A DNA stretch of 64,000 bases from Elusimicrobiota bacterium (GTDB taxonomy: Bacteria > Elusimicrobiota > Elusimicrobia > UBA1565): assembly GCA_016218495.1 (NCBI GenBank), contig JACRDU010000162.1:1-64000 (forward strand). The letters are read 5' to 3'. The notes under the pieces were generated by a model, which saw nothing but the letters and a program-made list of their open reading frames with translations, did not search any database and was not told the DNA's origin. The position numbers were made by a program, and so were the translations under genes. Shown one piece after another: positions 18,982 to 62,141 of this stretch (its first letter is position 1; each line of letters starts with the position of its first letter).

Positions 18982-20552
18982 AAAAAATCCTCATGCCGCT
19001 CGCCCTCTCCCTCCTCGCCGCCTGCGTGAGCGCCCCCCCGAAAGGGGATGCCCCGCAGGCTGCGGCCGCCGGGTTCCCAGCCAAGCCCTCGGGCTGGCTC
19101 GGGGTATCGGCCGGCCCTATCACCGATGCCGCTTTGCGCTCGGACCTGCGTCTTCAAGCGGACCTGCCGGGCCTGCTCGTGCTAGCGGTCATGCGCGGGA
19201 CTCCCGCCCAGGCCTGCGGCCTCAAGGCCGGAGACTTCCTGTCGAGCATGGACGACCTGCCGCTCTCGGATCTTGCTCAGGTCAAGGCCGCCGGGGGCGG
19301 GAGCGCGGTCTCCTTCAAGGTCTTCTCGAACGGCAAGCCCCGGACGGCCGCCTGCACGCTGGGATTCTACCCGGCCGTGCTCGGCCTCAAGGTCAACGAC
19401 ACCGCCTCCGGGCTGACGCTGGCGGCCCCCCCCGACAAGGTGGTGGAGAAGGCCATGAAGCTCCTCGGCTGGCCCGGCGCCCCGGTGCTCATCCGTTCCA
19501 TGGACGGAGAAGCGGTTTCCGCCATCGCACAGGCCAAGGCCTTCCTCTCGGGCCGCAAGCCCCTGGACATGGTCGCCCTCGAGCTCACCGACGCGCGCAA
19601 AAAGTACACGCAGGCGGTCCAGCTCAGGCTCAACGAAGGAGCCCCCGCCGGCCAGGAGTTCGCCGAAGGGGCTCCCGCCTCCCGCGAGCCGCGTACGCTC
19701 ACGGTCTCCCCGGAAGGGAGCGGGGATTTCCGGACCCCCGCCGGGGCGTTGCTGATGTCGCAGCCCGGGGACACCGTGCTCCTGCGCGCGGGACGCTACA
19801 AGGGAGGGGTCCTGGTGTCCGTTCCCAAACGGACCCTGCGCGGGGAAGGCCCCTCCACCGTCCTGGAGGGAGGGCTCTTCGTGACGGGCGCCGCCGGCGT
19901 CACGGTCGAAGACCTCTCCGTCGAGATGTCGGCCCGCAGCGCCGACTCCGCCGCGGCCGTACGCCAGGCGCGGGGGACGACCCTGCGCAGGCTGACCATT
20001 ACCGGAGGCCACAGCGCGTCCGTCGAGGACTCCCCGGACACCTTGGTCGAGGACTGCGTGATGAGCAAGAGCCAGGTCGGGCTCAGGCTGGTCAATTCCA
20101 CCTTCAAGGTCCAGCGCAGCGTGTTCCACGACAACGACTACGGGGTGTTCGCCCAGAACAGCGTCGGGACGCTGCGCGGCCTCACCGTCGCCGACAACCG
20201 CTCGCATGGCTTGGTCCTCGAAGGCGGCCGCACCGAGCTCTATGACTCCATCCTGTCGGCCAACCCCACCCTGCTCCAATGTCAGAACGCCTGCCGCTTC
20301 TCCGGCGGCTACAACGACTACCACGAGGGCAACCTGTGCGGCGACGCCTGCGTTCCGGCTTCCGAAGCCGCGGCGGGGACGGGCCTGCGCAAGGAGACCG
20401 ACGTCTCCGTCGACCCGCTCTTCGCCGAGCGCCTGAAGGGCGACTATCGCCTGAGCCTGGAGTCCCCCCTCATCGGCCGCGGCCGGGGCGGGGGCCCCAT
20501 CGGCGCCCTGCCCCCGGCCGGCTCCGGCGCGGGAGACGAAGGCTTCAAGTGA
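18978..20552 (+). CDS. lipoprotein with a PDZ domain and a right-handed parallel beta-helix (NosD/CASH-like) region
   Basis: ATGA overlap with the TPR gene. Lipobox LLAACVSA. PDZ (GLKAGDFLSSMDDLPLSDLAQVKAAG). Repeated beta-helix rungs (TITGGHSASVED..., LRLVNSTFKVQRSVFHDNDYGVFAQNS..., LVLEGG). Confidence 0.65.
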   Translation: MKKILMPLALSLLAACVSAPPKGDAPQAAAAGFPAKPSGWLGVSAGPITDAALRSDLRLQADLPGLLVLAVMRGTPAQACGLKAGDFLSSMDDLPLSDLAQVKAAGGGSAVSFKVFSNGKPRTAACTLGFYPAVLGLKVNDTASGLTLAAPPDKVVEKAMKLLGWPGAPVLIRSMDGEAVSAIAQAKAFLSGRKPLDMVALELTDARKKYTQAVQLRLNEGAPAGQEFAEGAPASREPRTLTVSPEGSGDFRTPAGALLMSQPGDTVLLRAGRYKGGVLVSVPKRTLRGEGPSTVLEGGLFVTGAAGVTVEDLSVEMSARSADSAAAVRQARGTTLRRLTITGGHSASVEDSPDTLVEDCVMSKSQVGLRLVNSTFKVQRSVFHDNDYGVFAQNSVGTLRGLTVADNRSHGLVLEGGRTELYDSILSANPTLLQCQNACRFSGGYNDYHEGNLCGDACVPASEAAAGTGLRKETDVSVDPLFAERLKGDYRLSLESPLIGRGRGGGPIGALPPAGSGAGDEGFK

Positions 20553-21646
20553 GGTCCCTGGTCCTGCTGGCCCTGCTGCTCGCAGGGCCTGTGCGGGCGG
20601 CGGACCCCGCGCCGTTCGCGGACGAAATCGCCCGGCTGGAACTGCAGCGCACGGACCTGGAGCGCCGTCTCGCCAGCCGGCAGGGCCTGCTGGCCCAGGC
20701 GTCGGCCAAGCCTTCGGCCTCCAACATCGAGGCCGCCCAGCTCCTGCGCAAGGCCGTCTCCGACACGCGAGAGTCCCTGGCCGTGGTGGCCGCCAGCCTG
20801 CGCAAGCTGCGCGAATTCGGCGAGATGCTCGCCAAGATGCGGCTCAAGCCCAAAGCCGTCTTCGGAGCGTCGTCGGTGAAAGGGGAAGTCACGCTCATCA
20901 CGAAGGACGGGAGCCGCCCCCTCACCGCGGGTTCGGCCATCGAGGAGCCCGGCATCATCACCACCGGCGATGGGGCCGCGAACATCCTGCTTCCGGATGG
21001 GACCAGCCTGACTCTGGGCCCGCACAGCCGTTTCGACACGAAGGATTGGACGCTGCACAGCGGGGAGCTCTACTATGAGTCCCTGGATGCGCTGTTCGGG
21101 AAAGCCAGAGCGGCGATTCGAGGGAAATTCAAGAAGTTCGAGGTGCGCACCCCCTCCTGCGTGACATCGGTGCGGGGGACCAAGTTCCAGCTCAGCGCCG
21201 CCGCGCTCACCCTGTTCGACGGCGAAGTGGAGACCTCCACCTCCGCCCCGGCCGCCGCGCCGGCGTATTCCGGCCAGGCCCCTGAGCCCGGCGCCGTCGT
21301 TGAGACCGGCCCCGGGGAGACGCGTGCGCTGTCCCTGCCGGGCGGGCTGTCCGCCGTCCTGGGGCCCGAGAGCAGGCTCGAGGCGTCCAAGAGCGGCAAG
21401 CCGGTCGCCTTCCTGCGCCGCGGCTCGGCCCGCCTGCGCGCCCGCTGCGAGGGAGAGCCCGCCCAGGTCCTCGTCCCCAATGCCCGGGCCCAGGCGTCCT
21501 CGGCCGATTGGTCCATGCGCGTGCTCCCGTCGGGCGCGGCCGAGCTCTCGCTGGAGGCGGGGTCGGTGCTGATGACCGCCGACGAGAAGCGCCTGGACGC
21601 GGCGGCCCTCGAACGCTGGTGGGACGCCCGCTTCGAGGAGCCCTAG
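20549..21646 (+). CDS. secreted FecR-domain protein (GTG start overlapping the upstream stop)
   Basis: Signal VRSLVLLALLLAGPVRAA. FecR-like block ITTGDGAANILLPDGTSLTLGPHSRFD...VRTPSCVTSVRGTKFQL. Its stop shares the palindromic CTAG with the convergent barrel gene. Confidence 0.6.
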   Translation: MRSLVLLALLLAGPVRAADPAPFADEIARLELQRTDLERRLASRQGLLAQASAKPSASNIEAAQLLRKAVSDTRESLAVVAASLRKLREFGEMLAKMRLKPKAVFGASSVKGEVTLITKDGSRPLTAGSAIEEPGIITTGDGAANILLPDGTSLTLGPHSRFDTKDWTLHSGELYYESLDALFGKARAAIRGKFKKFEVRTPSCVTSVRGTKFQLSAAALTLFDGEVETSTSAPAAAPAYSGQAPEPGAVVETGPGETRALSLPGGLSAVLGPESRLEASKSGKPVAFLRRGSARLRARCEGEPAQVLVPNARAQASSADWSMRVLPSGAAELSLEAGSVLMTADEKRLDAAALERWWDARFEEP

Positions 21647-22587
21647 AACTTCAGACGGATGGTCGTGTGGTAGGCCGCGCCGAGGTCCCCGAACGGGACC
21701 CAGGCGAAGTCCACGCCGAAGCGCCCGTAGGAAGCCCCGCCGCCCAGCGTCACGCCGCCGAAGCCTTCCGCATCGGTGTTCGCGCTGTTCCAGCCGCCGC
21801 GCAGGGCCGTCGTCATGGCTCCGAAGGTCCGCGCCGCTTCCGCCCCCAGCGAGACCTGCGGGGAATCGTCTCGCGGGAAGCGGACCTCGACCGAGGCCAG
21901 CAGCCCTTGCGCGGGGCGCAGGGCGCCGCCCGCATATAAGGCGAACGGCAGCGGGGCCGGGCTCGAGCCCAGGCTCAGGCGCCCGCCCCAGTTCCGCCAG
22001 CCGGCGCCGGCGCTCAGCCGCCGCCCGCGCCAGAGCGCTCCGCCGTCGACGGCCGGGGCCCGGGCGCTGGCCGAGTCCAGCCGCTGTTCGACGAGCTTCA
22101 GCGTCCCGCCCACCGCCAGGCCCGGCAGGGCGAGCCGGCCGTACGAGAGGGAGTAAGCGAAGTCGGAGGCGCCGAACGTCCCCTGCGCCGCGTCGGTCTC
22201 GACCAGGCCCCGCCGCTCGATGCCCGACGCAACCAAGGTCTTCACCGAGAAGGCGGCCACGCCCCAGGCGTTGCGCTTGAGGCGGGTGTCCCGCAGAGAC
22301 AGGAGCGGCACCGCCACCGCCCCGAAATCGTGGGCCAGGTCCTGGAAGTGGCTGTCATGGGTGGCCGCCGCTTCCAGCGATTCCAGGAAGGCCAGCCCGG
22401 CCGGGTTGTAATGGGCCGCGTGCAGGTCGTCGGCCAGGCCTCCGAAGGCGTCCCCCATGGCGGCCGGCCGGGCTCCGGCGGGGATCTTCAGGAAGGCCGC
22501 GGCCGAGGTGCCCTTGTCGGCCGCGCCGAACGCTCCCGCATCGGCCGCGGCGCAAGCCAGCAGCAGGCAGAGGAGCCGCGCCCTCAT
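21643..22587 (-). CDS. FadL/PorV-like outer-membrane beta-barrel (module 1 partner of the 3,539-aa CTD protein)
   Basis: Signal MRARLLCLLLACAAADA. FadL hatch-type motif FLKIPAGARPAAMGDAFGGLADDLHAAHYNPAGLAFL. C-terminal ...TTIRLKF. The ATG overlaps the giant-gene stop (ATGA). Confidence 0.65.
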   Translation of the reverse strand: MRARLLCLLLACAAADAGAFGAADKGTSAAAFLKIPAGARPAAMGDAFGGLADDLHAAHYNPAGLAFLESLEAAATHDSHFQDLAHDFGAVAVPLLSLRDTRLKRNAWGVAAFSVKTLVASGIERRGLVETDAAQGTFGASDFAYSLSYGRLALPGLAVGGTLKLVEQRLDSASARAPAVDGGALWRGRRLSAGAGWRNWGGRLSLGSSPAPLPFALYAGGALRPAQGLLASVEVRFPRDDSPQVSLGAEAARTFGAMTTALRGGWNSANTDAEGFGGVTLGGGASYGRFGVDFAWVPFGDLGAAYHTTIRLKF

Positions 22588-25500
22588 TTGAGCACCGCCA
22601 TCTTGAAGAAGGCGGAGCGCCCGCCCACCTTCACCTGGCCTATATAGAGCCCGCTGGCCACGTCCTTTCCGGCGTCGTTTGCCCCGTCCCAAGCTTGGTA
22701 ATAGGACCGGCCGCCCTGCAGCTGGCCCAGGTCGACGGTGCGCACGCGCTCGCCCGCCGCGCTGAAGACCAGCAGGCGCCCGTCCCCGCCCTGGCCGGCC
22801 GGGACGGCGATGCGGACCAAGGTCCCCCGGACGGTCTGGATGGCGGCCCCGTGGATGGGGGTGACGGTCTTGAGGCGCAGGTCGAAGGGGTTGGGGAAGT
22901 TGTAGGCGCTGAGGACCCCGCCGTCATAGGCGTTCCCCGAGATGACGGCGGCGGCGGCGTCGAAGAGGACGAAGGTGGAGAAATGGTCGACGGAGAGCGA
23001 GACGGTCTTGTTCAAAGCGTCGAGCTCGAGAGGCGCCCCGGTGACGTCTTGCTGGAGCACGAAGGCGTTGGCGGCCTCGTTGTACCAGTAGACGTTGAGG
23101 CGCGCCGGCTCGGCTCCGGCGGCGTACCCGAGGCTCAGCCGGGCGGGCTTGGCCAGCCGCGAGCCGAGGCCGGAGGAGACGGCCACGTCGTAGTAAGGCC
23201 CCGCGGGGCGGACGTCCGGCGGGGTAGCGGCCATCGCCCGCACGAGGCCGGCGGGGTAGGCGTCCGTCCCGAAGCGCAGCGACGTACGGGTCGCCTCCTC
23301 GGCGGACAAGCCGGCGGCCGCCAGCCCCCGCGCCCCGAGCAGGAGCTCGTCGGTCCGCCGCAGCGCGATGGAGGCGGAGGAGGACGCGTCGAGGATGAAG
23401 GCGCCCTTGGGCAGGGCCACGCGCCCCGGGTCCCCCTCGATGGACAGCGTCCCGCCCGTGAGGTTCGAGAGCTGGGTGGACTGATACCCGTCGACCCCCG
23501 AGAAGAACGCCGCCGTCGCCACCGCCAGGAACTCCGCGGAATCCGCCGCGTCGGGGTCCCTCTCCTCGGTGCGCGCCGCGAAGCGCAGCGTGAAGCTGGA
23601 CTCGGAGACCCCCGGCGTATAGATGCCCAGCACCTTGCGCCGGTCCGCCGACAATTCCAGGCCGCTGAGGGCCCCTGACGCCGAGACCGTCGAGACCAGC
23701 CTGGCCGGGTCGTCGTCGGCCGCGGTCCGCGCCCGCAGCGGGCGCGAGGAGTTGAACTCGATGAGGAAGGCCCCCCCGGAGCGACGGGACTTCGCGGTGA
23801 TGCGCGGAGCGGGCGGGCGCACCACGACGTCGAGCACGCGGGACTCCGTCGTCGTCGAGAAGGACAGGGCCGATGCCTCGGGCGGCGTGTAGGGCTCGTC
23901 GTCGGCCGTGAGCACGATGAGCCGGTAGGTCTTGCCCGGCACGAACCCGCCGACCCGGTAGCGAGCCGCCGAGCGGCCCGCGGAATCGCGCAGCAGGCCC
24001 CCCTCGAGGACTTCCGACAGGTCGGCCGTCGCCGCGAAGACCCGGCGGACCTCGTCTTCGCCGGGCGCGCCCCCGTCCGGACGGCGCAGGACGCCGGAGA
24101 GGGACGCGGCCCGCTGCAGCGTGATGGTCCCCAAGGAGGGCGATGCGGCCGTCACCCGGACAGGGAGGGTCCGGGGGGCGCAGCCGAGGGCCTCCACCGT
24201 CAGCCTGTAGGCGCCCGCCGACAGGCCCGACAGGGAGAACGACCCGTCCGGGGCCGTCCGAGACACGGTGTTCCCCAAAGGGCCCTCCGTCGGAGGCCGG
24301 CCTTCCGGGTAGAGGTAGAGCTCGGCGCCCGGCTCCGCCACGGCCCCGTCCGAGGCGCCCAGCAGCTGCCCCCCGTCGGCCGCCAGGACGCGCCCGGAGA
24401 CCGAATACGGCGCCGCGCGCAGCGGGATGCTCAGCGCGGCCGTGCTGAGGACGTCGACCCCGGCGATGACGGTCTCATCGTAGGCCGGAGGCGGCTCGGA
24501 TGGGTCCTCCGGGCGGGCGGCCGCGACGATGTCGTAGAACCGGACGTCGGGGTCGAGCCCGCCCAGGGAGAACCGGCCCGCGCCGTCGCTGCGCACCGTG
24601 CGCGCGGGACGGCGCAGGCTCGACAGCCCCCCCACCGAAGGCCGGGCCGTGACCGGCACGCCGCCGGCGGGCAGGCCGCCGGACGAGTCGGTCAGCAGGC
24701 CCGCTACCGTCGCGGCCGAACGCAGCTTCACCACGCCCAGCTCGGCGGTCTGCCCCTCGGCCACCCGTACGCCGGCCCGCACGGCGGCGGCGGCGTCGAC
24801 GCCGCCCCCCGGCCCGGGGACGAGCTCGACGTCATAGACGCCCGCGAAGACCCCTCCGATGAGGATGGTCCCCGCCGCGTCGAAGTCGGGCCGGGCGCAG
24901 CCGCGGGGGCCGCAGAAGGCGCCCTGGGCCGGGAAGAAGCCCCCCTCCCGCCAGGGAGAGGCGACGGCGGCGATGCGCAGCTCCGCGGGCAGCAAGGTCC
25001 GGTCCGAGCCGTCGATCGGGACCAGCTCCAGGGTGCCCGACGAGGAACGGCGCTCGAGGGCGAGGCGCAGGCGGATGGACCCCAGGGCCTCGAGGGAGAC
25101 GGTCCCCGCGTCGGCCGCCCCCCCGTTGAGGCTGATGAGGCGCGGCCGGGCGCCGTAGGCCCGCGGGGTCCCGGCGTCGGCCACGGCGAGGACGAACTCC
25201 CCGTCGGGGAGGGAGTTGACGGCGAAGGCGGCCGGAGAGCCGGGAGCGGCCTCCACCGAGACCCGGCGCAGCTCCGTCCCGTCCAACGAGGAGAGCATGA
25301 CGTCCAGACGGCGTTTCGCGGGCGCGCCCGCCGGAAGGGCCAGGGCCCCCTGCACGGAGCCGCCCGGTCCGAGCCTCAGGTCCAACGCCGTGTCGGCCGT
25401 GACGGCGAGGGACGCCTCGACCGGAGCGGCCTCGTCGCCGTTGCCCGGGCTGCCGTCGAGGTCTCCCGGTATGCGGACGCGGTAATAGCCGGGCGGGACG

Positions 25501-33206: not shown

Positions 33207-33665
33207 CTACTTGGACTGCTGCCTCGACATGAACTTCCGGCGCTCGGCCAGCTTCTTCATCTCCTCGGCGAAGGCCGGGTTCTTCTTGAGCATGAAGGAG
33301 AAGTCGGCCGAGAGGAGGACGAACAGGCGCGTCGCCTCCTCGCAGACCACGCTGGCGTTGCGCGGGTCGCGCGACAGCAGGGCCATCTCGCCGAAGAAGT
33401 CCCCCGGCCCGAGGCGGGCCACGGTCTTGGAGAGGAAGATGTACCTCTTGAGCCGCACGGAGACCGCCCCGTCGTAGACGATGTAGAAGGCGTCCCCCGG
33501 TTCGCCCTGATGGAAGACCGTCTCCCCGGGCTTATAACGGCAGAGCATGATGTACTTCACTATCTGCTCGAGCTCCCCGACGTTGAGCGGCGCGAAGAAC
33601 TCGACCTTCCTCATCGCCCGGGCCAGGTGGCCGTAGTCCGCGTCCGACATCGCTACCTTCTCCAT
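33207..33665 (-). CDS. stand-alone cyclic-nucleotide-binding (cNMP/CAP-effector) domain protein, no DNA-binding domain
   Basis: 152 aa. cNMP-binding beta-roll motifs GETVFHQGEPGDAFYIVYDGAVSV and FGEMALLSRDPRNASVV. The stop is 3 nt before the giant-gene ATG. Confidence 0.8.
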   Translation of the reverse strand: MEKVAMSDADYGHLARAMRKVEFFAPLNVGELEQIVKYIMLCRYKPGETVFHQGEPGDAFYIVYDGAVSVRLKRYIFLSKTVARLGPGDFFGEMALLSRDPRNASVVCEEATRLFVLLSADFSFMLKKNPAFAEEMKKLAERRKFMSRQQSK

Positions 33666-33674
33666 TTTCGCCTC

Positions 33675-34892
33675 CTAACGCTCGAATGCGACCCCGAAGA
33701 GCAGCGAGGTCGCGTCGTGGTTGAACCGGTGGAATCCCTCGTAATGGTCGTTGGCGCGCGCCCATGAGCGCTCCACCCGGGCCATCAGGCCCAGGCCCGG
33801 AGCGAGCGGCCAACGCCCCTCCAGTGACAGCGCCCAGGTCTGTTCCAGCAATCCGACGCCGCTGTAGGCGCCGATGCCGTCCCGGGCCGAGCGGTGCGGC
33901 CAGCGGCGCCAGCCGTAGCGCAGCCCCCCCGCCAGGGAAGCCGGGGCGCGCGGGTCCCCCCAAGACGCGCCGAAGTCCGGCCCGAGCTTCCACGCCGCAT
34001 AGCTGTAGCAGCGCTCCTGGAAGCGCGCTCGGGCGGGGTCGAAGCAGGCCTGGTCGGAGACCGTGTCTTCGAACTGCACGCTGAGCCCGCCGTGCAGACG
34101 GCGGTTCGGGCGCGGCTCGCCCGAGGCCCTGAGCCCGGCCTCGGCGGAGGAGACCAGGTCCCCCCGGGTCGAGTCGCCGAGCGACCCGTCGGAGCGGACC
34201 AGCTTCTGGTGGAGGAAGCGCCGGACCTGCAGCCCGGCCTTCAGGTCCAAGGCCAAGCCCTTGGGCAGGGGGAGCAAGAGGCCCGCGCTCAGCAGGTGGG
34301 CGTCGAAGTCGAGGACCCCCGAGCCGGCCAGCTCGCGGGCCAGCGGCCGGCCGCGCGGGTCGAGCGGGGCGGAGGATTCCAGCGAGTTGAAGTTCGGGAA
34401 GAAGGTGCGCGACAGCGCGTAGCCGGCCCAGAGCCGCCGCCCGGCCGACAGGTCCCATTCCAGGTCCACGCCCCCGTCGACGGTGTGGCTGTCGAAGAGC
34501 CCGGACAGCCAGTCCTCGTCCTTGGTCTCCCGCAGCAGGCGCATGCGCCAGCCGGCCCGGGGCTTGAGGAGCCAGCGGCCCCGAGCGGGGGCGTAGACGG
34601 CTTTCAGCGAAACACGGTGCTCCATCGCCTCAGAGAACAAGGTCGTCCCGCCCGCCGTGTCGAGCGCCGATTCGACCCCGCTGTAGGAACCGCCGAGGAC
34701 GGGGAAGAAGGTCCAGCGGGGCCCCAGCGGCACGGCCGCCGCGGCCGAGCCCGATGCGCTGCCGGAGAAGGCCCCCGGCCTGCCGTCGGTCTGCAGGCGG
34801 CCCCCCAGGAAGCGCGCGGAAATGACGGTCTCCAGCGCCCGCGCGGGGCCCGGGAAGGCGAGCAGGGCGCAGAGCAGGGCCCGGACGCTCAC
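33675..34892 (-). CDS. outer-membrane beta-barrel protein, unknown family (paralog of 62142..63383). GTG start overlapping the upstream stop.
   Basis: Signal VSVRALLCALLAFPGPARA. Alignable to the 62142 ORF (LRETKDEDWLSGLFDSHTV vs LKETRDETWGKGLFDTQTV; FFPNFNSLESS vs RFPNFKSLESK). The longer 688-aa ORF form has a junk N-terminus overlapping the upstream gene. Confidence 0.6.
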   Translation of the reverse strand: MSVRALLCALLAFPGPARALETVISARFLGGRLQTDGRPGAFSGSASGSAAAAVPLGPRWTFFPVLGGSYSGVESALDTAGGTTLFSEAMEHRVSLKAVYAPARGRWLLKPRAGWRMRLLRETKDEDWLSGLFDSHTVDGGVDLEWDLSAGRRLWAGYALSRTFFPNFNSLESSAPLDPRGRPLARELAGSGVLDFDAHLLSAGLLLPLPKGLALDLKAGLQVRRFLHQKLVRSDGSLGDSTRGDLVSSAEAGLRASGEPRPNRRLHGGLSVQFEDTVSDQACFDPARARFQERCYSYAAWKLGPDFGASWGDPRAPASLAGGLRYGWRRWPHRSARDGIGAYSGVGLLEQTWALSLEGRWPLAPGLGLMARVERSWARANDHYEGFHRFNHDATSLLFGVAFER

Positions 34893-36385
34893 GGCAGGGC
34901 TCCCGTCATGAAGGCCAGGGCCGGGTCGAGGCGCAGCTCGATGGTCCGCCCCGAGAAGAGCGAGGAGGAAACGCTCTGCTCCAAGCCGGCCCCCAGCAGG
35001 ACGGCGCGGAAGGCCGCCGCGCCCGAGCCCGCCGGCAGCGCGGCGGAAGCGACCTCGCCGCCGCAGAGCCCGCGCGAGACCGTGGACAGCGAAGAGCCTT
35101 CGGCCCAGGACGAGCTCAAGACCTGCAGCCGAGCGCTGGGAGCGGGATAGGTGACCGAGACCGCTCGCGCGGCAAGCTGGGCGCCGTTCATCAGGGCGTG
35201 GGCGGCGGTGAGGGCCCCTCCCGTGAAGGGGTCGGTGACGGTGGATGGGACGGCGTCGCCGTTCACCAGGATGTTCGCGCCCGTCCAGCCGGCCGCCAGG
35301 CGGCCGTTTACATAGACCCCCCACCGGTCGAAGAGGGAACGCCAGGCCGAAGCGCCGGCCGCCGAGCGGAAGTCCCCCGTCACCGGGTCGAAGACGGAGG
35401 AGACGTCGTCGGCGCCGTCGGCGTTGGCGTTGAGGTCGACCAGGTGTCCGCCGTCGGCCGTCTCCATCAGGACGTCGGGGCCGTTGGAGCGCGCCGACTC
35501 GTAGGCGGTCAGGGTCAGGGCGGGGGCCGCGCCCGCCGTGCCGGCCAGCGCCCGCAGGGCGCCCGAGATGTCCCCCGGCACGGCCGCGCTGAAGGTGCCC
35601 AGGTGGTAGAGGTAGTCGGTCCGGCCTTCCCGGCCGTTCACGGCGACCAGCTCGAGCTGGTCGGCCCGGGGTCGCCTGACCCAGGACTCGGCGCGCACCC
35701 GCGCTCCCCGAGAATCCATCGCCGTGCGGCCTTCCTCCCATTCCAGGCGCCGCAAGGCCTCGGCCCCGGAGGCATAGAGGCCTTCCCGGAAGGCGTCGGA
35801 TTCCAGCTCCGCCCGGATGCGCTCGCGCAGGCCTTCGCGGCGGAGGGCCGCGGCGGCCGGCATCCTGACGGGGACCTCCAGCCCGCGCAGGTCGATGCGC
35901 ACGCTCTCCCCGGAGCGCAGCAGGAGTTGGTGCCCGCGGTTGTCCTCCACCCCCAGCTCCCCCTCCGCCGACTCCACCGTGGTCCGGCCTCCGGCCAGGA
36001 CGCTGACCCTGAACTCCCCGCCCCGCACGGTCAGGGCCGCGGCCGGCGTGCGTACCTGCACCACACGGCGCCCCACATCGGCGAAGCGGAAGACGGACAC
36101 GCCGATCTCCACGCGGGCCAGGAAGCGCTCACCCCCGACGTCCTCCAAGGTGAGGACCGTGTCCTCCTGCAGCAGGGCGGTGTCGGCCCCGCCCAGCTTG
36201 AGGAAGGCGGACGATTGACGGCCCGTCCTGAGGGCGGCGCCGGGGCCCAGGGCGGACGGGATCTTCTCCAAAGTCGCCCAAGGGGCGTCCAAAGCGGGCC
36301 TGAGCTGGAGCAGACCGGACGCTCCGGCGACAGACGGCCCCGCCGGCGCGGCAGCCGCCGCCGGGCGCGAGAATAGGGCCAGCAC
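34889..36385 (-). CDS. secreted FecR-domain protein (paralog of the partial gene at 63391..64000)
   Basis: GTG start (a possible ATT start 6 codons upstream would give a better signal peptide). FecR-like block FLKLGGADTALLQEDTVLTLEDVGGERFLARVEIGVSVFRF...VRTPAAALTVRGGEFRV. C-terminal TADGGHLVDLNANADGADDVSSVFDPVTGDF matches the 63391 ORF. Confidence 0.6.
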   Translation of the reverse strand: MLALFSRPAAAAAPAGPSVAGASGLLQLRPALDAPWATLEKIPSALGPGAALRTGRQSSAFLKLGGADTALLQEDTVLTLEDVGGERFLARVEIGVSVFRFADVGRRVVQVRTPAAALTVRGGEFRVSVLAGGRTTVESAEGELGVEDNRGHQLLLRSGESVRIDLRGLEVPVRMPAAAALRREGLRERIRAELESDAFREGLYASGAEALRRLEWEEGRTAMDSRGARVRAESWVRRPRADQLELVAVNGREGRTDYLYHLGTFSAAVPGDISGALRALAGTAGAAPALTLTAYESARSNGPDVLMETADGGHLVDLNANADGADDVSSVFDPVTGDFRSAAGASAWRSLFDRWGVYVNGRLAAGWTGANILVNGDAVPSTVTDPFTGGALTAAHALMNGAQLAARAVSVTYPAPSARLQVLSSSWAEGSSLSTVSRGLCGGEVASAALPAGSGAAAFRAVLLGAGLEQSVSSSLFSGRTIELRLDPALAFMTGALP

Positions 36386-36463
36386 CAGGGCTGGGAGGAG
36401 GGCTCTTACCCTAATAATGCTCTAAGGGTACGCGCCCCGCGCGAAGCGCGCAATACCTCAACG

Positions 36464-36537
36464 GTGTCAGACTTTCGGAACTTTCGAAAGTTCGAAACTC
36501 TGTCGGAACTTTCGAAAGTTCCGAAAGTCTGACACCA
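36464..36537. repeat. AT-rich nested inverted repeat. 30-bp perfect stem GGTGTCAGACTTTCGGAACTTTCGAAAGTT...AACTTTCGAAAGTTCCGAAAGTCTGACACC containing two copies of the 18-bp palindrome GGAACTTTCGAAAGTTC(C/G). Candidate terminator and/or operator.
   Basis: Read directly. Lies immediately after the TAA stop of the 36540 gene and about 80-150 bp upstream of the 34889..36385 gene. Flanked by small GC hairpins (GCGCGAAGCGCGC). Confidence 0.8.
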
Positions 36538-36539
36538 GT

Positions 36540-37502
36540 TTAGAATTTCAGGAGGAGGGAGAAGCGGAAGGTGTTGCCGAGGTCGCCGTAGGGGACCCAG
36601 GCGAAGTCGAAGCCGGCGCGGTAGAACTGCACGCCGGCGCCCATCGTGAGGAGGTTCTGCCCGTCGTTGTCCATGCGGTGGGTGTTGACGCCGGCCCGCA
36701 GCGCGCCGGAGACGTTCGCCGTGAACGGGTGCAGGTACTCGACCCCGCTGCCCACGAACAGGTCGGTGTCGCGGTACTTTGTCACGTCCAACGAGGCCCG
36801 GACCCGCTTGGTCAGCTGGGTGCCGGAGCCGACGACGAAGCCGCGCGGGAGCGGGTCGGAGACTCCCGCGAAGGAGATCTCGCTGCCGATGTTCTTGACC
36901 ACGGCGGAGAGCCAGACCGGCCGCCCCCACACGCTGGGCAAGGTGAACAGGCCCCCGAAATCGGTGGCGAAGGCAGAGGCCGAGTAGCTGTCGATGGTCT
37001 CGTGGATGAGCTTGCCGGTGACGCCCAGGCTCAGCCGCGGAGACAGCCGGTAGGCGTAGGAGAGGTTGTAGGAGTAGTCCCCGGCCCCGAAGCTGCCGGT
37101 CGGCGAGCGCGTGTCGGCGGTGTGGCGCTCGATGTCGGAGATGGAGAGGTTGTAGATGGCCGCTCCGATGGCGTGCTTGGAGTGGTCGGCCTGGCGGCCC
37201 ATCGGGTAGACGAAGCCGGCGAACTCGTAGCTGATGCCCTGGAAGTGCTCGGCATGCGCCGCGGCCAGCTGGCTGGTCGACAGGCGGGTCATGGCCGCCG
37301 GGTTGTAGTACACCGCGTAGACGTCGTCGGCCAGAGCCGAATACGCCTCGCCCATCGCGCCGGCGCGGGAGCCCGCGCCGAGCTTGAGGAACTGGGCGGC
37401 GCTGGTGCCCGCGTTGGGGTTGATGGCCAGGGCCGGGCGCGCGGCGGCGCAGACGAGCCCGAGGGCCGCCAGCAGCGCGAAGAGTCGGACCCGGTTGGTC
37501 AC
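36540..37502 (-). CDS. FadL/PorV-like outer-membrane beta-barrel (module 2 partner of the 8,185-aa CTD protein)
   Basis: Signal MTNRVRLFALLAALGLVCAAARPALA. FadL hatch-type motif FLKLGAGSRAGAMGEAYSALADDVYAVYYNPAAM. C-terminal FRFSLLLKF. ATGA overlap with the giant-gene stop. Paralog of 21643..22587. Confidence 0.65.
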   Translation of the reverse strand: MTNRVRLFALLAALGLVCAAARPALAINPNAGTSAAQFLKLGAGSRAGAMGEAYSALADDVYAVYYNPAAMTRLSTSQLAAAHAEHFQGISYEFAGFVYPMGRQADHSKHAIGAAIYNLSISDIERHTADTRSPTGSFGAGDYSYNLSYAYRLSPRLSLGVTGKLIHETIDSYSASAFATDFGGLFTLPSVWGRPVWLSAVVKNIGSEISFAGVSDPLPRGFVVGSGTQLTKRVRASLDVTKYRDTDLFVGSGVEYLHPFTANVSGALRAGVNTHRMDNDGQNLLTMGAGVQFYRAGFDFAWVPYGDLGNTFRFSLLLKF

Positions 37503-61500: not shown

Positions 61501-62056
61501 GCGTATTGAATTCGTTTATGAGCTGCTGGCCGCCGACGATGCTGGCGGTGATTATGCTCGTGCCGGAGGAGATGACCGCATGGAAGGAGGCTCCCGACGC
61601 GTCCTGGTAGGACGCTTGGAAGGCCAAGGTAATCCTGTCGTAGACCCGCATGTGGCGTTGCCCGTTGGCCGAGCCGACGACGAAGACGCTGCCGAGGGCG
61701 GGGTCGACGAAGACATCCTCGGCGACGTCGACGGAACTGCCGCCGCTGTCGAAGGTGGCCGAGGATAGCACGTTGCCGGACGGGTCATACTTGACGATGA
61801 GCCAGTCGGTCCCGCCGGGACCGAGATTGACGATCTTGCCGACGACGAAGACATTGCCGTTGGCGAGGTCGACGGAAATCCCCTGAGCGCGGTCGTTGTT
61901 GCCGCCGGTATCGTACGTGGCGCTGGTGAACGAGGTCGAGTAGTTGCCGGCGAACCCTGCGGCGCCTGCGGTGACGGGTAGGAAGAGGACAGACGCGACG
62001 ACCGTCCGCAATAACGCGGCGGTCGACCCTCGGCGGAGTCTCGGCGTTTCTCTCAC
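37499..62056 (-). CDS. giant (8,185 aa, 24.6 kb) secreted cell-surface protein: multiple SBBP-type beta-propellers, NHL-like propeller, about 14+ Ca-binding-loop beta-sandwich repeats, 2 FN3, 2 PPC domains, many Ig/CarboxypepD_reg-like domains, T9SS-type CTD
   Basis: Single uninterrupted ORF, GTG start, signal peptide (TAALLRTVVASVLFLPVTAGAAG). SBBP motifs (GNVFVVG...DWLIVKYDPSGNVLSS) recur through aa 40-2900. The C-terminus NFPNPFD...GVYILEY...HKMAVIKGSGL is Por_Secre_tail-like. Confidence 0.85.
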   Translation of the reverse strand: MRETPRLRRGSTAALLRTVVASVLFLPVTAGAAGFAGNYSTSFTSATYDTGGNNDRAQGISVDLANGNVFVVGKIVNLGPGGTDWLIVKYDPSGNVLSSATFDSGGSSVDVAEDVFVDPALGSVFVVGSANGQRHMRVYDRITLAFQASYQDASGASFHAVISSGTSIITASIVGGQQLINEFNTPALNLISTRAMTGSYVSGKQDRVLGWFPGNGVLVVGVRSDGGTLRVELLTAPNLTPAGSFDITPPDTLEGGAAVALAGSGDAYAVAFASVAGQSINYIFRIQNGVAVATATFASSGNVSSSDERSVAVDPNNYDVYYMGSGAFPGLKAFTPDLASSLRKDADPSSSMVVRASTQIYMTSVNQTAGPQNFASKMVDYAALPDGGGGQGGQTSLVNDGTYLYMSVANGDGTVDIRKMTPLNTLVSSITISGAGVDDNLPLVYTGGSLYMVGMASGPTTLGNDAAVWKFNPGPMTFVSSRTLDAGFGLTDFVMAATSTANGELRLAGAVELSAGSFATAIWEYATVSDTLFAPTYANAPSSSFDFVSSIASTGTAPGAPQYFWMLGMSSQPVGGAPNYIDLALWKYAAGSLTLANTLPGFMPSSEGNPTLTANGTNLFAGAMFMNGSGNMDLAVLKFDMDGSTVAEKYWHSTSPATHEKVGDIILRGAANVAVIGGQEPSQNLGYSAYWDYDLSLNLTAGYPKNLLSESVLYSGTDMGGTFYAVNNGSPTVVQLDGTGSVVAGAEGIEGAPAGAPSFTFGGAYNSANGNAITATGHNIIGRQIFVDTVTVSGPFVYVAFISTTANLGGELYPEVDSIARLDASGNLLSSTTLPGNAAGADAFAVDSAFNVYASYKVKPTSSTTSDVGIVKFNKFLAQQGQVSYQSPAAGGPAYTNATRMTTDGTNIYVHNDGSSLIKFSPSLVALATASYTTLPGFTNGNGITIDPSGNTYMVVNNATSTLHLLKYGPTFDGASPLVDVDVSTNLLPIIGNGGSIELAYAGGFVFALVGSEDGSELYIRKFDSSLNYTGFSSTFAPTRLQIGPGQIQAGPEGDIYIVTSGSTPVGSQYSAARYDVGLNLLSTAAFNAAGAGGSGVALHVPASGDVWATGTSCTGGGGNNCVARTTRLALSGGGGPGGPAVLTYSGSLPAGAFVNSTANRNEALFGLAVDSTTGNVYTVARSTSAPQWYAASGDSFLLKISPSGVVLASAALQGDRSGDALAWENGFVFVSEKEEPTTRRIARYDANLVRLSSVSVDAAAVGNITRAVAKNGFLYTINDGGLSDKGAKVIKYDAVTLNEVARSTLAPFGSDHLNGDDIVANVPGDIYVAVTSMTVTPPIQGALYRFDSSLVQLSSVSLTTTLGSQPRLAYGGGSVFVASGDSAAPAHAILHRYDSSTLASLGVSTNIYVPGASPETSITADATSLVVGLTSSTADGGSFLAFRFDHSFNQLSSGVFDAGFGGADSLTGVALYSGDGVALGGTGRNSTHDDGVVMLRTLASGGGAPAPMSFSGTFPVPGGALASGADEDRAYDIVKDTNTGDVFVVGHTSSPAGSYDALILHYDVGGNLVSSATYGLSPYNDSFRAVAQHANGDLFVGGSVDINSSGNSDFLLMRVSSITLAMISSTTMDSGTLDYFEAVTSHPNGYLYFAGHHFAASFFEIDLFRISTGLANVGFTGWASSLDYFANGVAADPVTGNIYTTGRINDTPARVLVAQVDENLNSAITEDTLPAGQQDGGIALAPSGTELYVTGSTVANGGDIILARYSVPTPTLVSTAALGGAGFEIASDLAFDATGDLLLAGSAGSPADYLAMRINPATLAMISSATADGAGNVDTAFAFVVGQTGALFLTGQSSNGANNDIRTTRLLLPLGAGGPAAPPAPVFTYSGALPSGKFVNTTDNRNEAVVALTADPVSGDLYAIAYSTTGAVWPPAGEAVILKMNSAGVVLSSATMYPLGTTSHTIAFDGGSLYVGANRGEPTIDTGIHRYDANLVFQSSATLGVGAGGTMAVARGGNVYALVDGGPLFLGGEYPTIIVKYSPSLAEISRTTYTVAGSWQTHAKWAAVDAVGNLFVAVSSMHMSPSGLVKFDTGLQVVGTLDISSLVGDPDSARIAYGSGKLFLFARSEGAGEAYVRRFSNTLAYDGVSSTFPVVGGQGMGAISADSANIVTVGLTSATADGGNFLLKRFDSNLVPFDTVLADAGFSGADAFMALLTSGPTGVYAAGAGYNTGHFDGVVKLQSLSAAPPAVVSTVSVSFAGTFSPGSRINNDVNGADIGHSLVIDSTGGFVYATIHSTSNASAGASPDQVTVVKYDLTGAFVASTTLLGSLSGDALAFENGSVFVAEKDEAGLRRMVKLGASLERLQTVTFNQNNIGNITRAASRAGFVYTVNDGGSISQGAKVVKLDTNLNEVARATFPISTQHVNGNNIVITPFGGEVFVSVSDGSNTVKLVKYDQNLNALAQADVSALFPAVVGQMDLAFSNGVLLAGSYDATGYNYRLRKFDPNLNYSGASSTLSVQSAPGAGLKSGPDGLFYLAITSYSADGGDYALKVFDPDLIEKASTSFDAGFAGFDQAIGLAVLDSSNVFVTGTGFNGANGYDAVTFVKNLSDAGSGTGGAPQGDGYWGVADMAGRLWTSYAAEDSLKRFDSPAPPVSRTAPAQQVLGFPQGVRNPRALSVDTGGNLWVAVSTAFGGPVNQLVRYAGEAGPGTVSTTTSSSLSTMLSDVWATAFRSDTGDLWVANRTGGGASVVNYLRDGASSLGAPTYSAGGASQFTSFAQLPGAAGLGFDSGNNLWVSVPALGEIRRYPEVAGSISGTPDVTITAVPAPFAFAFDFDGNMFVSEVTTDAAPGSGSVWRFENLGTLPSPFIDTTPQWVDGGKMLSGLAFVGGQLWGADFRNNQLVTVQTVPPTPPASYGSVEGTLGYDYGLTGAPDYKIVFSTSAFDIDNSAPATLMVSTGALGAFSASGLIAPNTYYVQALWDRNSSGEPDNFDPFARHSASFYGPLTPVVVLPDQTVTGLDLHLFDMVQVSGTVTNNSVQTGTLRVQHWYGDPASAGTRIEYPRSADNSLSTYTVFVATISNLYLQAFVDSNWNAAKDSGEDFATVGPIDLSGVSPNTTFVQNITIAAGTPGQVHLAAVSVAPQNISSNGEAAFLKLGLWSEGGNAQLSALRVSLLGDAPAQAVVARVWRDSNSDGNLTVGLDEFIGDEFFSAGVPPTANVVFWSTQTVTASTASYFVGLGIFGVPAGKSAGVGVESASAFTFPNGSMAAGQPLPAASDLAVSQFSLAARPFDMGYPVPQAGASPSGGFDTGLFINVGQTVEINASGFWNTGASGVSGPEGLGSTGGLGGALPIGALVGRIGGSNWFLVGSSKTFVSTQSGPLALAMNDTDYQDNSNGLAVDFHIVPSSVTQTWVGGSAFGAGADIPNNWASGQPPQPGESIVFNGANDCDWNLFQLNVGAWTMTPGYTGTVRLRGSNGPDDFNAIQVSSHAVIAGGTLDMGRNKEFRVQGGLFVTNGATFDLGRDNGRLFVGQAGAVVSGGGRFVYAPDQSAFSQVMPAGFNTVPFTVVEGTVNVTGNGFLRMERSNVTITSAANLLAFHNVGFDEWEQNATAAFTLARSSSQAMTFRGLQFYGQYTTNVNAAGVPVGSNVTMLDSMGPNRGTPKENDPNNVLFWNPDGGGAGNIAGSIINEAVSGPGAGFTRVRASTQPFFDTFAPQGGLQFTASVSGLSGTYNLNNLDAPATYYLFAWHDANNDFYPNGVETRGAFGPANKGFLRSDPVFVAPSDNLSGKDITVRDWGEVNVDFQNGSQQFGPMLVGAVSLLADGVSTNAVEALSYSQGPGFFNLSVPATSLVLIGWVDVNNNRELDSFEASGSSAVITLPQSGTYPGTVSISAGGGTAPPGGTVGASVVIPHGGLIGDNGPQTMAKLTLTGASSQASMNGLQVDIEGGPMQSYQLAFWIDNDGNGQLDQYCGGTGPCDNPVGFAYVTPPVSSAVVNFYQTLFLDPGQPRTAFLVFQPQGLQSGHQGLAPLSLTVAASNYFLMGAGSMDADPIYPIVSSATIGWAVFAGTEGDPFGGGGYYTCLSVAPGQQVVVQAAGSWNFKGQNTGPEGLSNTESAPNLLRGARTGALLVSANGGWVAVGTGTTITAGQNGGLGIHLSANDVPGDYFNNYGEMRVGLTVTGSTTSAVAGSINYLGALSGSNLIVNLKQDCQYAPFGCNPTVSTAVVSLAGAGSYPYVLHVPFGGFFTVEAYAQADPNQQSGKLPMFQAPIGSTAAVSFTVYSGLGQISGSLAYSGLMDFGQFNIGVTTSPDFEHEVNFVGGLKTPTAGPFTVTGLPIPANYYLVAFRDGNYNDQPDGPEPLGGYNLAPSQIVMSQLSSLLSPIAVSSAAGANIGTVTLGDMGGIQGRVFFDQAVNNKRFIIVAGHGVPGTASFAPEARDFRFVPSLPAGGSFDFFMGLLKPATDYRLVGFADLNFNGQFEANEPFTVNDAFLSVPSGGFANAEMRVGTPQPPAAVGSFGLGAFSDTQLTFQWSQVQGATGYLLLDASSAVVVALPGSASTYIEAASAASTSAIRGIQAVNNQGAGGIRAVFGIPAAAAVTPGAPTFSNVGVSSFTVDWTANGNGSLAYYQLESATVAAGPFQAVQYSPALTRAAIGLAPATTYYFQVKAQSPNGGFSAPSSVQSVVTLPSVDPSIAGLVSYTGTQTGDVYIQAFTSSAPFAGQAASVRMPKSSQQPYYLALGAGSYFVRAFVDVNANGTREAGEDQGTLGGAVAVVASPVIGQNFSVVADTVTPAAPAGLLATLSLGRVALTWNAPTLNQNGTPLADLAGYRVQRTTAGTANFATLSNQTVFGVSGIVAAPAFTDLSPIGGVDNIYRVLAIDWGGNVGGASGALAVRPAVGGTVSGSISTFTATSQGAYRVRLSTSPRREDPFLAESTLSDFSFTGLNDGVYYLRGFRDVNADNSQDAATEPSGTHGGIVGPFPLNIINGNTVANRPVTICDRAALRLGLDATGQFQAGDCPALDKGPGFYTDLYTFRAGGGAAGSIGTGSSVDISLVTPGFDSELIVLGPSGQVVARDNTPGNPHVTFLANEPGIYVVEPTSFFSGQTGFYDLLMNVYGGFTGQIAGVTSYSGSKTGPIRLQLFDRPDADAFPFHVQDQFGTGSFTIGNLKDGAFYLRAFRDENFNFAKDPGEPSGAYGFSESSPTAITVTGGVASVGSADIALADPSVGRIEGSILRQGSLAGTIRIEVGRRACSDCSDLNVVAFTTIPFAGSYALDFIAPATNYIVQAFVDQNANNRGDALEAKGSSTPVTVQANSTSTVNLLVRDPGTGTSGTSVIFGTVTYNGASTGTLFVAFATDQNFNYIPYYLTQSATGYFSRSGIQGGTTYYVGAFIDKNANGQIDEGGSLVEPSGDTGSQTFVPLSSSVGVAFTVVDPATGAVSGTVQYSGTVEGPLVVQAQRETMGGSHEGGFRSVSIPRTAGVSTYAYSAAFLSTGPFRMYAFVDSNGNQRSDFGEPFFRRDSLVNLGHLGQQVAGIDLVVFDAGAGGSGGAVGRIEGVLTYSGGQPGPIVVQAFTTNTFVGAPFRTATPGAQFGAISFAADNLPNGTYYLRAFKDPNGNQAYEPQFEAFGLVAGGSGLTVTADAPFSGGHVGTLSDAGQGGPVGSSSLSGTLEYRGSFSTGTFYLALFKDTDNDGSTDDLIRLSTLPFSAAPQSFTFSGLPDGQAWLRGFLDRNGNQQPDISEPFGLTDAQGISVFGPVTGLLMPVCDRVSLDLSPGAQNAGTINGGSCYSRESETLGSSQQLLTFHGTRGQILDATMEATEDNYLYLYDEHGQLVAQADEGGANQGDARLQVTLPGTGDYTLAATFYAPGIVGAYKIALQNSGGTPGSIAGEVIYSGSQGGKIVMALFNQENFDSEGAFVDGRDLPGPGAFSFQNLASETSYYMGAFVDVNFNNSPDQGEDFAVFSTAPPTATPIFLRAGQEVAGLSLVINPSTAAYGGLEGRVTGVISYTGSRQGVLRIEFWPDSSFQGRPLAVRSIPTGVGPYDLSVPGGQPYAVRAFLDVNNDFIPNPDEPMGVYSPNGQGAEPIYVPDNAARDGVDFEIRDPGFKLGQDGVSGEGFVNINSSQAAAGSAQVFISSFVVGPSGIGAGGAVAFGLPFGWTPPQSDSSMSPGFTTVTLSPAGPAVSTQPAPGGAPGIIVRVGGTPLAAGSTVQFLYNAAVPCFTGPSQFFFGSASTQTAPPAPLFSGNPIVDVTLGAAAAVHSAEPFIGLIQGATSQRLLLEAVDLCGNRTPVASVANVVLRAKRFSYQTAAFVDEPGLRISSSIAGVFDSTAVVTFAAGTSSATYRLRAATAGDLAVEIASNLLAPGTTGYAGVFALAVDPLTGVRVSTQPNPSVAQTTVTIRPDGNPLSPNLAFINFNIADQSLFWTVSIASTPYKADAAPNPVAFFSGSGQPARGQIAWDGRDYAGLRVGQGVYYVRIEAGGISNDSLRITVQSAALSLKVFDSGVTPNLPLSGVNIEYFGQFGGGTLLTDAQGAASLNGLSAGGYRLNITKDGYLVGRASVTVNADSTVRSTAPFNSQVELSTASFQSSTAPVRVLMSRAPSLIVVPNIPVTSTQAFTLWGELQISNASGTFSRNGPMRLEAGTTTFDDGGQYDNSVNAFVTKTVLRFQVGSDTYTVRARLEGFEDVSQSVFVAGSGETRLTLPVFSRRGAFTGTVALPNGSNTTGAFVSVSAVPISTETRIEGGFGGVELPVGVASDTYRVDGLKPGSYRLTANTQGYKAVFIDSATILSGVDTVVNFSSFPASNTSVLTATLSVTGDTSLFPALEPGGPSVRIHLNAWAPNTPNQAYRSVDIPVSATLSSVAVQLTGLEPGIKYQVFAGIESRGNTEFEVPGGFSREVTLSTTTGQGDVAFSFEAASGVVSGTILIPNGNTDFGNVTLFGETIAAVRPERVGKRFEEVATALDGWSTTASTGTFLLTGNNTETVDVTFVYKTTGRSVRKRVSIVNGSTTTVFVDLTDQTFAISGAVLNQISNTNFNTNPKLVANAGHLPVKGRTGADVPVDPATVDLGDVLTSTNSLARVVAIRQEFGVGTSTSFNPATDRVGYLTSAGTYTIRNVPPGVYLVRTADIRSRMDAAGTACTTCAVVVPRLAQIVAVGTASVQASTFTLTDGYSVTGVLTLAAGVQDFRTLRLTLRNRRLEVVRSTTVALGNSAAGVTAASTSYRLEGLPAGEFYTLSVEDAASEPKYLGRPIRFPDSAQSPGGLAANLVSQDVLMRRAGYLTGKLQDAASGELFTERNAKVLPPNLRITATANPWVEGGFAQAASSVSARPIRADGTFLVGPLFPDTPYDLKVFQDKWDLAFLAQGSQNYSPVELGGLSLQPFERKDVGTLSMNQGTSIKGTLVDAASTTTALGNIKLVAKPSHGDVSLVVETFSNANGEFTLWVSTFVSPQYDVTVAPRDGNQAASGVRYAQVDLIRLAVSTTPLNIQLNALLGSVTGQVLTDDGSPLAYPFGENQGYPAAAVFLQPLGVVSLDNPLGDTEVDTLSDGSFSFPGVAVGSYTIRAVSLGFGVATATVTVNAGSFCISTTTVVGLCAPGLTLARGGLLQGRILLPNGTSPSTEEVGGVAAANSDFSKFIIGSVSIDQTARTVNSYSISGFEPGVSYNVVILPPHRDDLDVVYPAEGQGISFSAAESTTTKTVNLTYSRTAPDCYADSREKALGNGQFQVKIACSQPLRKLLASDDDVDTIVSVSSFASNGTNYTAPNGQGALLGGSDKKIESNRKEITVVYRAGSASEKNFSIKLNAVMATVDPTTGENFTLLKVFDFAAAVSQNGSNRVITSQANKPVNNSQGGQVNLQTSERVEGQGDSEKFGLNFAPGSFEGCSAGDTNYNCQGKLGDKNKVQVGVQGSLDANQAAQLSMAQLGYVPARIQALQASAYGPLAASTATNNAFKANPFSSFYEVFLPLGIRAQLTKPVDLTLPYDTSLATTTSVSALKIWSISNGQAPVEETNNKRIDTINKTITVSVDHFSTFVVLNGAPGLVGAATFRDEKPIAFNFPNPFDCRSRTINCNVAEGSCAAGALTGVGTVIHYAAPGAVTPLDHRFRIYNVAGELVDEFHKTANGGTHNYDFWDCTNAAGRPVASGVYILEYTVNGQSVYHKMAVIKGSGL

Positions 62057-62116
62057 AGCGGTGCTACAAAACCTTTACAGCGACAACATGTAAGCACAAC
62101 TTCCCGATTTGCGCAA

Positions 62117-62134
62117 GGGTGACTTCGGTCACCC
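62117..62134 (-). other. stem-loop GGGTGAC-CGAA-GTCACCC (7-bp stem, tetraloop) in the 86-nt spacer between the OMP gene and the giant gene
   Basis: Read directly. On the minus-strand transcript it lies just after the OMP stop and about 60 nt before the giant-gene GTG. Confidence 0.5.
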
Positions 62135-62141
62135 CTCCTAA

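Follow-up and report, generated by a model that had tools for sequence, protein, structure and literature searches.

A palindrome between two giant-protein modules of Elusimicrobiota: probably a lineage-specific insert, possibly the 3'-end hairpin of a giant-PorV transcript

The Locus

The window, by which we mean the whole 64-kb stretch of DNA analyzed, carries in 21643-62056, on the minus strand, two adjacent modules, in each of which the gene for a giant secreted protein, of 8185 aa in one and 3539 aa in the other, is followed by the gene for its own PorV/PorQ-family barrel (Table 1). Read along the minus strand, on which all of these genes lie, the 8185-aa giant is followed by the PorV-family barrel, the palindrome that is the subject of this article, a conserved non-coding block, the FecR-like gene and the rest of the second module. 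This module order, including the genes for the FecR-like, the 404-aa and the cNMP-binding proteins, is kept in other Elusimicrobia MAGs, with orthologues of the two giants, of 8947 and 3517 aa, present in GCA_016196755.1. The 320-aa barrel has a 100% identical counterpart in an Elusimicrobia MAG, MBI5598043.1, and the stop codon of its gene touches the extended stem of the palindrome. As the gene for the 8185-aa giant and the PorV gene overlap by 4 nt, the two probably belong to one transcript, which would end at the hairpin.

The first ATG, GTG or TTG of the FecR-like open reading frame (GTG 36385) is located more than 15 nt downstream of a conserved Shine-Dalgarno-like motif, TAAGAG (36385-36420, minus), and it cuts into ALLPALVLALFSRPA, a region to which the signal-peptide-like N-termini of the relatives can be aligned, the same sequence being present in the relative L018; the true start may be non-canonical. 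A second FecR-domain protein (455 aa, 20279-21646, plus strand, Pfam 1.6e-18) is encoded at the other end of the modules, where its gene converges on the second PorV-family gene with an overlap of 4 nt; no intergenic hairpin is possible there.

Table 1. Features of the two modules and of the junction between them, in minus-strand order.
Feature	Position	Strand	Remarks
Giant protein, 8185 aa	37499..62056	-	C-terminal T9SS type A sorting domain, TIGR04183 26.7 bits vs cut-off 23
PorV/PorQ-family outer-membrane barrel, 320 aa	36540..37502	-	NCBIfam PorV_fam 163 bits vs cut-off 90; Pfam PorV 3e-8
Lineage-specific indel with the palindrome, 82 nt	36458..36539	-	One clean alignment gap vs L018; between PorV TAA and GGTA-TTGCGC block
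Stop-codon-proximal arm of inverted repeat	36506..36536		5' arm on minus strand; 31 nt, 100% complementary
16-nt self-complementary core, copy 2	36506..36521		Inside the sole exact 18-mer, 36505-36522
Spacer (loop), 12 nt	36494..36505		Two further pairs possible within
16-nt self-complementary core GAACTTTCGAAAGTTC, copy 1	36478..36493		Its 18-mer has one mismatch
Promoter-proximal arm of inverted repeat	36463..36493		3' arm on the (presumably) transcribed minus strand; 31 nt, 100% complementary
Conserved non-coding block, about 60 nt	36395-36461	-	Heads the FecR-like gene
Promoter-like bipartite motif TTGCGC-N17-TACCCT	36425..36453	-	Begins 9 nt past the stem; single match in the window
FecR-domain protein, 498 aa, first gene of the downstream module	34889..36385	-	Pfam FecR 2.5e-5; synteny in L019 and L029
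404-aa protein	Between FecR-like and cNMP-binding genes	-	Downstream module
cNMP-binding protein	33207-33665	-	Matches no DNA-binding domain
Second giant protein, 3539 aa	22584-33203	-	C-terminus with only weak FlgD-like matches
Second PorV-family barrel	21643-22692	-	

Structure of the Palindrome

The original prediction was of a 30-bp perfect inverted repeat at 36464-36537, beginning 2 nt after the TAA of the barrel gene. A repeat search does recover a perfect repeat directly past the PorV TAA (36540-36542, minus strand), but its arms measure 31 nt and its stem begins 3 nt past the stop codon (Table 1). The pairing can be extended by AAC/GTT, with one bulged T, to 36460-36540, so as to include the final base of the stop codon. 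This is the sole long perfect inverted repeat when the whole window is scanned, the runners-up being GC-rich palindromes within coding regions that are 74-88% complementary. The contrast in base composition noticed at first, about 45% GC in a context of about 70%, holds: the spacer from the PorV stop to the -35 hexamer has a GC fraction of 0.45, and the lowest-GC 90-mer of the window, at 0.43-0.44 versus a window mean of 0.70, is the palindrome itself. The distance from the first gene of the FecR-headed module, predicted at 80-150 bp, holds as well, with the stem located 78-151 nt upstream of the FecR-like GTG at 36385.

As RNA, a 121-nt region with the palindrome folds at -61.9 kcal/mol, versus -28.1 ± 3.5 kcal/mol in dinucleotide shuffles (z = -9.65), the hairpin energies ranging from about -56 (-55.9) to -61.9 kcal/mol, and a sliding scan of 90-nt segments, run on both strands, ranks the palindrome as the top GC-corrected folding outlier (z of -8.1 and -9.4). 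No shuffle matches it; the palindrome is real, and a chance feature is excluded. A T-shaped three-way fold, composed of an outer stem and two hairpins of 16-nt units, can be rejected, as it falls short of the linear hairpin by 21 kcal/mol in stability. Being near-perfect, the palindrome could act on either strand.

One may still suspect an artefact of assembly or sequencing, given that the source is a metagenome-assembled genome and that the closest relative compared does not have the segment. We consider this, along with a chance hairpin, hardly credible: the palindrome lies in the interior of a contig of 96.9 kb, it is not an inverted copy of its flanks, it is short relative to the reads, and comparable hairpins are present in independently assembled relatives.

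The palindrome had also been described as holding two copies of a self-complementary 18-mer about 29 bp apart. What is present twice is a 16-mer palindrome, GAACTTTCGAAAGTTC, at a distance of 28 bp from center to center, while the exact 18-mer, GGAACTTTCGAAAGTTCC, occurs once (36505-36522), its counterpart at 36477-36494 ending in a G and matching at 17 of the 18 positions. This duplication had been regarded as more elaborate than a simple terminator requires, a dimer-of-dimers operator for the downstream module being one of the possibilities named. It does not carry that weight: given one self-complementary 16-mer in the arm, a perfect inverted repeat is bound to contain it twice, and so the two copies do not constitute independent evidence of such a site.

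Presence and Absence among Syntenic Relatives

Ten homologues of the PorV barrel could be traced to contigs, and eight lineages have the same FecR-like gene downstream, with the two-module order fully visible in L019/L020 and in L029. The closest relative compared is L018, whose PorV is 88% identical to that of the window at the amino-acid level and 82.5% at the nucleotide level; nearer PorV proteins (P0121, 99.7%, and P0122, 96%) are encoded on Logan contigs outside the locus comparison. In L018, the junction reads TAG and then immediately GGTATTGCGC, the PorV stop abutting the conserved block with nothing between, and of the 72 non-coding bases after this stop 65 are identical to the window. 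With the palindrome missing from L018 by one clean gap, it is an 82-nt lineage-specific indel.

The palindrome is absent from all eight syntenic relatives, and thus it is dispensable for the locus. The distance from the PorV stop to the conserved block varies from 4 nt in L018 through 11 nt in L028, 30 nt in L049, 31 nt in L034, 86 nt in the window, 94 nt in L030, 99 nt in L027 and 257 nt in L019, to 390 nt in L029. In sequence, the spacers found in the other lineages are unrelated. In the four lineages with the shortest spacers (L018, L028, L034, and L049; 4-31 nt), no hairpin is found between the stop and the block. The remaining lineages have long, perfect hairpins of their own immediately past the PorV stop: one of 13-16 bp in L027, a nested one of 14 + 10 bp in L030, two of 14 and 20 bp in L029, and an 8-bp GC-rich stem followed by ATTTCC in L019. 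Hairpins also follow a PorV paralogue in another context, in L033, as two tandem 35-nt units with a 12-bp stem each. The L027 and L033 hairpins are homologous, and 3 of 11 pairs are changed on both sides while the pairing remains at 100%, in three sequences, so that these numbers are indicative only; they suggest, at that level, that it is structure rather than sequence that persists after PorV genes in this clade.

We hold with good confidence that the palindrome is a lineage-specific insert in a hypervariable, stop-codon-proximal slot, as judged from these alignments. Because no outgroup has it, gain is the parsimonious reading, and most likely the palindrome was gained in the lineage of the window rather than lost in the sister lineage.

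Other inhabitants of this slot deserve mention in their own right. The tandem units of L033 (1272-1341), which belongs to another metagenome, are homologous to the single hairpin past the syntenic PorV gene of L027 (2084-2114), both sequences originating from one sample, and these hairpins may represent a small REP-like family in that organism. In L030 (4962-5031, identical in L031 and L032), the same slot is filled by another nested palindrome, which measures about 65 nt and has a 14-bp outer and a 10-bp inner stem and 49% GC. ACAGGGA and CATTT-TT, present in the flanks of the L030 palindrome, recur in the 30-nt spacer of L034 and L049, relatives of similar divergence, which hints at growth of that hairpin from local sequence.

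The Conserved Block Downstream of the Palindrome

While the slot turns over, what follows it does not. The block that heads the FecR-like gene in the window also heads it in L018, L019, L027-L030, L034, and L049, with a consensus of (GGTA)TTGCG[CG]-N17-T[TA][AC]CCT followed by TATTAGGGTAAG in 9 of 9 syntenic loci, including the window. We label it promoter-like on the basis of its conservation and its 17-nt spacing; a scan with the sigma-70 consensus does not call it. Its two hexamers also open short inverted repeats, TTGCGC/GCGCAA and TACCCT/AGGGTA, each of them supplying the 5' half, and as there is almost no covariation, these repeats cannot be told from plain promoter hexamers or from leader structure. 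The block could represent a promoter combined with an operator, or else a leader RNA. An ECF-sigma promoter, to which GGAAC might point, is not supported, as no GGAAC-N16-17-CGTT arrangement is directed toward the downstream genes, and neither is a sigma-54 promoter, for which the GG/GC spacing is unfit.

A similar layout can be observed at a second junction, 62056-62142 (minus), upstream of the gene for the 8185-aa giant. A TAG is followed there by a hairpin, GGGGTGAC-cgaa-GTCACCC, and immediately by TTGCGC-17 nt-TTACAT, in a context of about 50% GC. The arrangement is like that at the palindrome, on a smaller scale.

These data bear on the proposal that the palindrome is a dimer-of-dimers site for a regulator of the downstream module. 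The proposal has some appeal, as the two identical 16-bp palindromes would be centered about 67 and 95 nt upstream of the putative start site (estimated from the position of the -10), and chance would rarely place a 16-nt palindrome within an arm of 31 nt (at a probability of about 2e-4, by a rough estimate). Yet the site is conserved in none of the eight syntenic relatives, whereas the promoter-like block is kept, the 28-bp spacing is out of helical phase, the window has no other such site and only chance matches are found elsewhere, and no transcription factor or HTH-type protein is encoded in or beside either module, the cNMP-binding protein giving no match to a DNA-binding domain. With the second copy being, in addition, a by-product of the inverted repeat, an operator function appears very improbable, and this part of the original prediction is not supported. 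Should the downstream module have an operator at all, TTGCGC/GCGCAA and TACCCT/AGGGTA would be better candidates than the palindrome.

Origin of the Insert

As to where the insert came from, the main rival to a functional reading is that of a selfish or neutral palindrome of no dedicated function, either a non-autonomous element of the REP or MITE type, or a hairpin formed de novo through template switching or slippage during replication, in a permissive non-coding slot. Several features fit such an origin: the clean presence/absence polymorphism against conserved flanks, the perfect arms, implying recency, and the rapid turnover of the slot in the relatives, four of which have it empty. The arm is internally repetitive, the heptamer ACTTTCG occurring six times in the 64-kb window, three times in each orientation and always within the palindrome, and this is the product expected of serial inverted duplication. 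The tandem duplication in L033, in turn, resembles the clustered REP repeats known as BIMEs.

On the other hand, no further copy could be found in the window or in the collections searched. A second copy is lacking in the window even when three mismatches are allowed. In 596 Gb of species-representative genomes, the exact 18-mer gives 17 isolated single matches, mostly in lower-GC genomes and none with the extended palindrome. A 19-mer gives five chance matches and nothing related in JGI metagenomes, and a 17-mer gives 13 unrelated matches in the IMG/VR viral contigs. When the element is compared by blastn to plasmids and phages, the only match is a chance one of 28 nt, to the Natrialba phage PhiCh1 (E = 0.2-0.7), and its three-frame translation, by which copies hidden in spurious open reading frames would be exposed, has no match among 5.8 billion predicted proteins. 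Rfam 15 returns only sub-threshold matches to generic miRNA-precursor hairpins, the best at 41 bits versus a threshold of 90. Within this scope the element is unique, an outcome that the original prediction had listed, together with uniform transcript coverage, as favoring a fortuitous hairpin. Also against mobility, the flanks (AAACT on one side, GTTGA on the other) differ and thus give no sign of a target-site duplication, and no transposase or RAYT gene is present among the window proteins scanned. The compensatory changes between the L027 and L033 hairpins suggest maintained pairing rather than neutrality, although gene conversion internal to a palindrome could produce the same pattern. 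On balance, a selfish or neutral palindrome strikes us as unlikely, if still the strongest of the competing explanations.

Some of the matches encountered are of separate interest. In low-GC viral contigs (L036, L038, L044, and L045 of IMG/VR, 36-39% GC), the core of the 18-mer is part of an apparent canonical terminator, CCTGGGAACTTTCGAAAGTTCCCAGG followed by TTTATTT; as the flanks are unrelated, this is, judging by the sequences, a coincidental reuse of the word. A segment of the element, GGTGTCAGAC, resembles the Tn3 sequence GGGGTCTGAC at 8 of 10 positions, but a terminal repeat of the Tn3 type can be dismissed, with no 5-bp duplication and no plasmid matches. By inspection, the element does not match adapters or FRT-like synthetic sequences either.

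A Possible Role at the 3' End of the Giant-PorV Transcript

The explanation that we favor, at a probability of roughly 0.45 and thus tentatively, is that the palindrome is a recently gained insert forming the 3'-end hairpin of the giant-PorV transcript and serving as a terminator devoid of a U-tract, an insulator or a stabilizer. In this scheme, the 82-nt insertion would fill the fast-evolving slot between the PorV stop and the regulatory block heading the next operon; in the 25.5-kb giant-PorV transcript, it would fold into a perfect hairpin of 31-34 bp starting at the stop codon; and the hairpin would act, most likely at the RNA level, by setting where the upstream transcript ends, by protecting that 3' end, and by reducing read-through into the promoter-like block that comes next. 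That the palindrome is transcribed, and that it has a terminating or a stabilizing effect, is what we infer as most likely.

The argument for a role at the RNA level is one of position, in that the hairpin is situated between the end of the translationally coupled giant-PorV pair and the conserved block, 9 nt from the latter, and it is strengthened by the unrelated hairpins that keep appearing in this slot in relatives and by the layout of the junction at 62056-62142. In addition, arms that are perfect next to a PorV gene diverged to 82.5% nucleotide identity from that of L018 indicate either a recent origin or maintained pairing.

The specific proposal of an intrinsic terminator insulating the modules, with which the analysis began, is plausible from this position but unproven, and a number of observations weigh against it. 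There is no U-tract 3' of the stem, which is followed by GTTGAGGTATTGCG, a terminator scan returns no sites in 35800-37000, and hairpins with a U-tract are not found after genes anywhere in the 64-kb window. In at least one high-GC group, the mycobacteria, intrinsic termination by RNA polymerase depends on a U-tract (PMC3993855); this is the best studied of the high-GC cases. The stem is several times longer than those of canonical terminators, of which the consensus scan counts at most 20 pairs, and a ribosome terminating at the stop codon, where the stem begins, must partly melt it. Finally, four syntenic lineages do without a hairpin, and thus termination by a hairpin is not required at this locus.

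A related possibility is that the palindrome is an element of RNA processing or one coupled to translation, i.e., a substrate for RNase III that would separate the mRNAs of the two modules, or a stem at the stop codon that would slow termination and so tune the output of PorV. RNase III needs roughly two helical turns, and a perfect duplex of at least 31 bp exceeds that. The stem begins within the stop codon or 3 nt past it, and REP sequences near stop codons in E. coli were reportedly found by Liang, Rudd and Deutscher, in 2015, to slow termination and tune output. In lineages without the hairpin, the modules can be as little as 4-11 nt apart and are probably co-transcribed. Against this reading, the hairpin is absent from a close relative, and sequence alone does not distinguish it from the 3'-end hairpin reading. 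We view a dedicated processing or translation-coupled role as improbable, more so than the selfish or neutral origin discussed above.

If the 3'-end hairpin does terminate transcription or insulate the modules, it would show one lineage uncoupling two neighboring giant-adhesin/PorV modules, which in the closest relatives are separated by only 4-11 nt. It would also provide a data point on 3'-end formation by a hairpin only, free of a U-tract, in a little-studied phylum of high GC content. Beyond this, the palindrome is an ordinary intergenic palindromic hairpin insert, a feature of a known kind. For annotation, the regulation of the second module should be sought in the conserved block that follows the palindrome.

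A broader and rather speculative model, to which we assign a low probability, can be formulated for the high-GC Elusimicrobia as a group. A family of fast-evolving, AT-rich hairpins, maintained in structure, would repeatedly colonize, or arise in, the slot between PorV stop codons and the conserved block, and these would tune the coupling of modules for giant T9SS cargo via translation-coupled termination or cutting by RNase III, thus representing a REP-like class with no sequence similarity to the known ones.

Comparison with Known Systems

Among the integrative elements, an integron attC site may come to mind, as the AAC...GTT ends are present. Both 7-mers (TCTAAAC and GTTGAGG), however, deviate from the RYYYAAC and GTTRRRY consensus, the genes upstream are syntenic chromosomal genes in relatives devoid of the element, and no integrase is present among the proteins scanned; we therefore reject this candidate. 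Hairpins created by template switching offer a closer parallel, in that the palindrome is perfectly complementary, consists of nested, hierarchical repeats, and appeared suddenly in one lineage. Unlike in such cases, no donor sequence is visible in L018, and the event cannot be reconstructed because all 82 nt are missing there.

The REP/BIME palindromes of Proteobacteria, which stabilize mRNA 3' ends and are sometimes located near stop codons, are imperfect and 20-40 nt in length, with copy numbers in the tens to hundreds. The palindrome is like them in being extragenic and placed just after a stop codon, in being present or absent by lineage, and in having a related hairpin arranged in tandem in L033. 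It is unlike them in being perfect and 74 nt long, in existing as one copy in 64 kb and in none in the public collections searched, and in having no RAYT- or transposase-like domain among the window proteins scanned.

The Correia elements and other bacterial MITEs (Neisseria CREE, ERIC, RUP) differ from the palindrome in more respects: the latter has no target-site duplication, with no bases duplicated relative to the empty site in L018, its arms make up almost the whole of it, leaving no internal region, and neither a family of copies nor a parent IS with matching ends could be found in the collections searched. What is common to both is a short non-coding insert beside genes with inverted repeats at its ends (here, perfect arms of 31 nt), a transcript expected to form a long duplex open to cleavage by RNase III, and the capacity to separate or modulate neighboring transcription units.

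Canonical intrinsic (Rho-independent) terminators are, in contrast to the palindrome, GC-rich rather than AT-rich and equipped with a U-tract, and their stems are shorter than the perfect 31-34 bp seen here (20 pairs at most in the scan); nor is the palindrome conserved at orthologous loci. Like such terminators, it forms a stable stem-loop that immediately follows the final gene of an operon and precedes another promoter-like region, and, being nearly symmetric, it could act in both directions.
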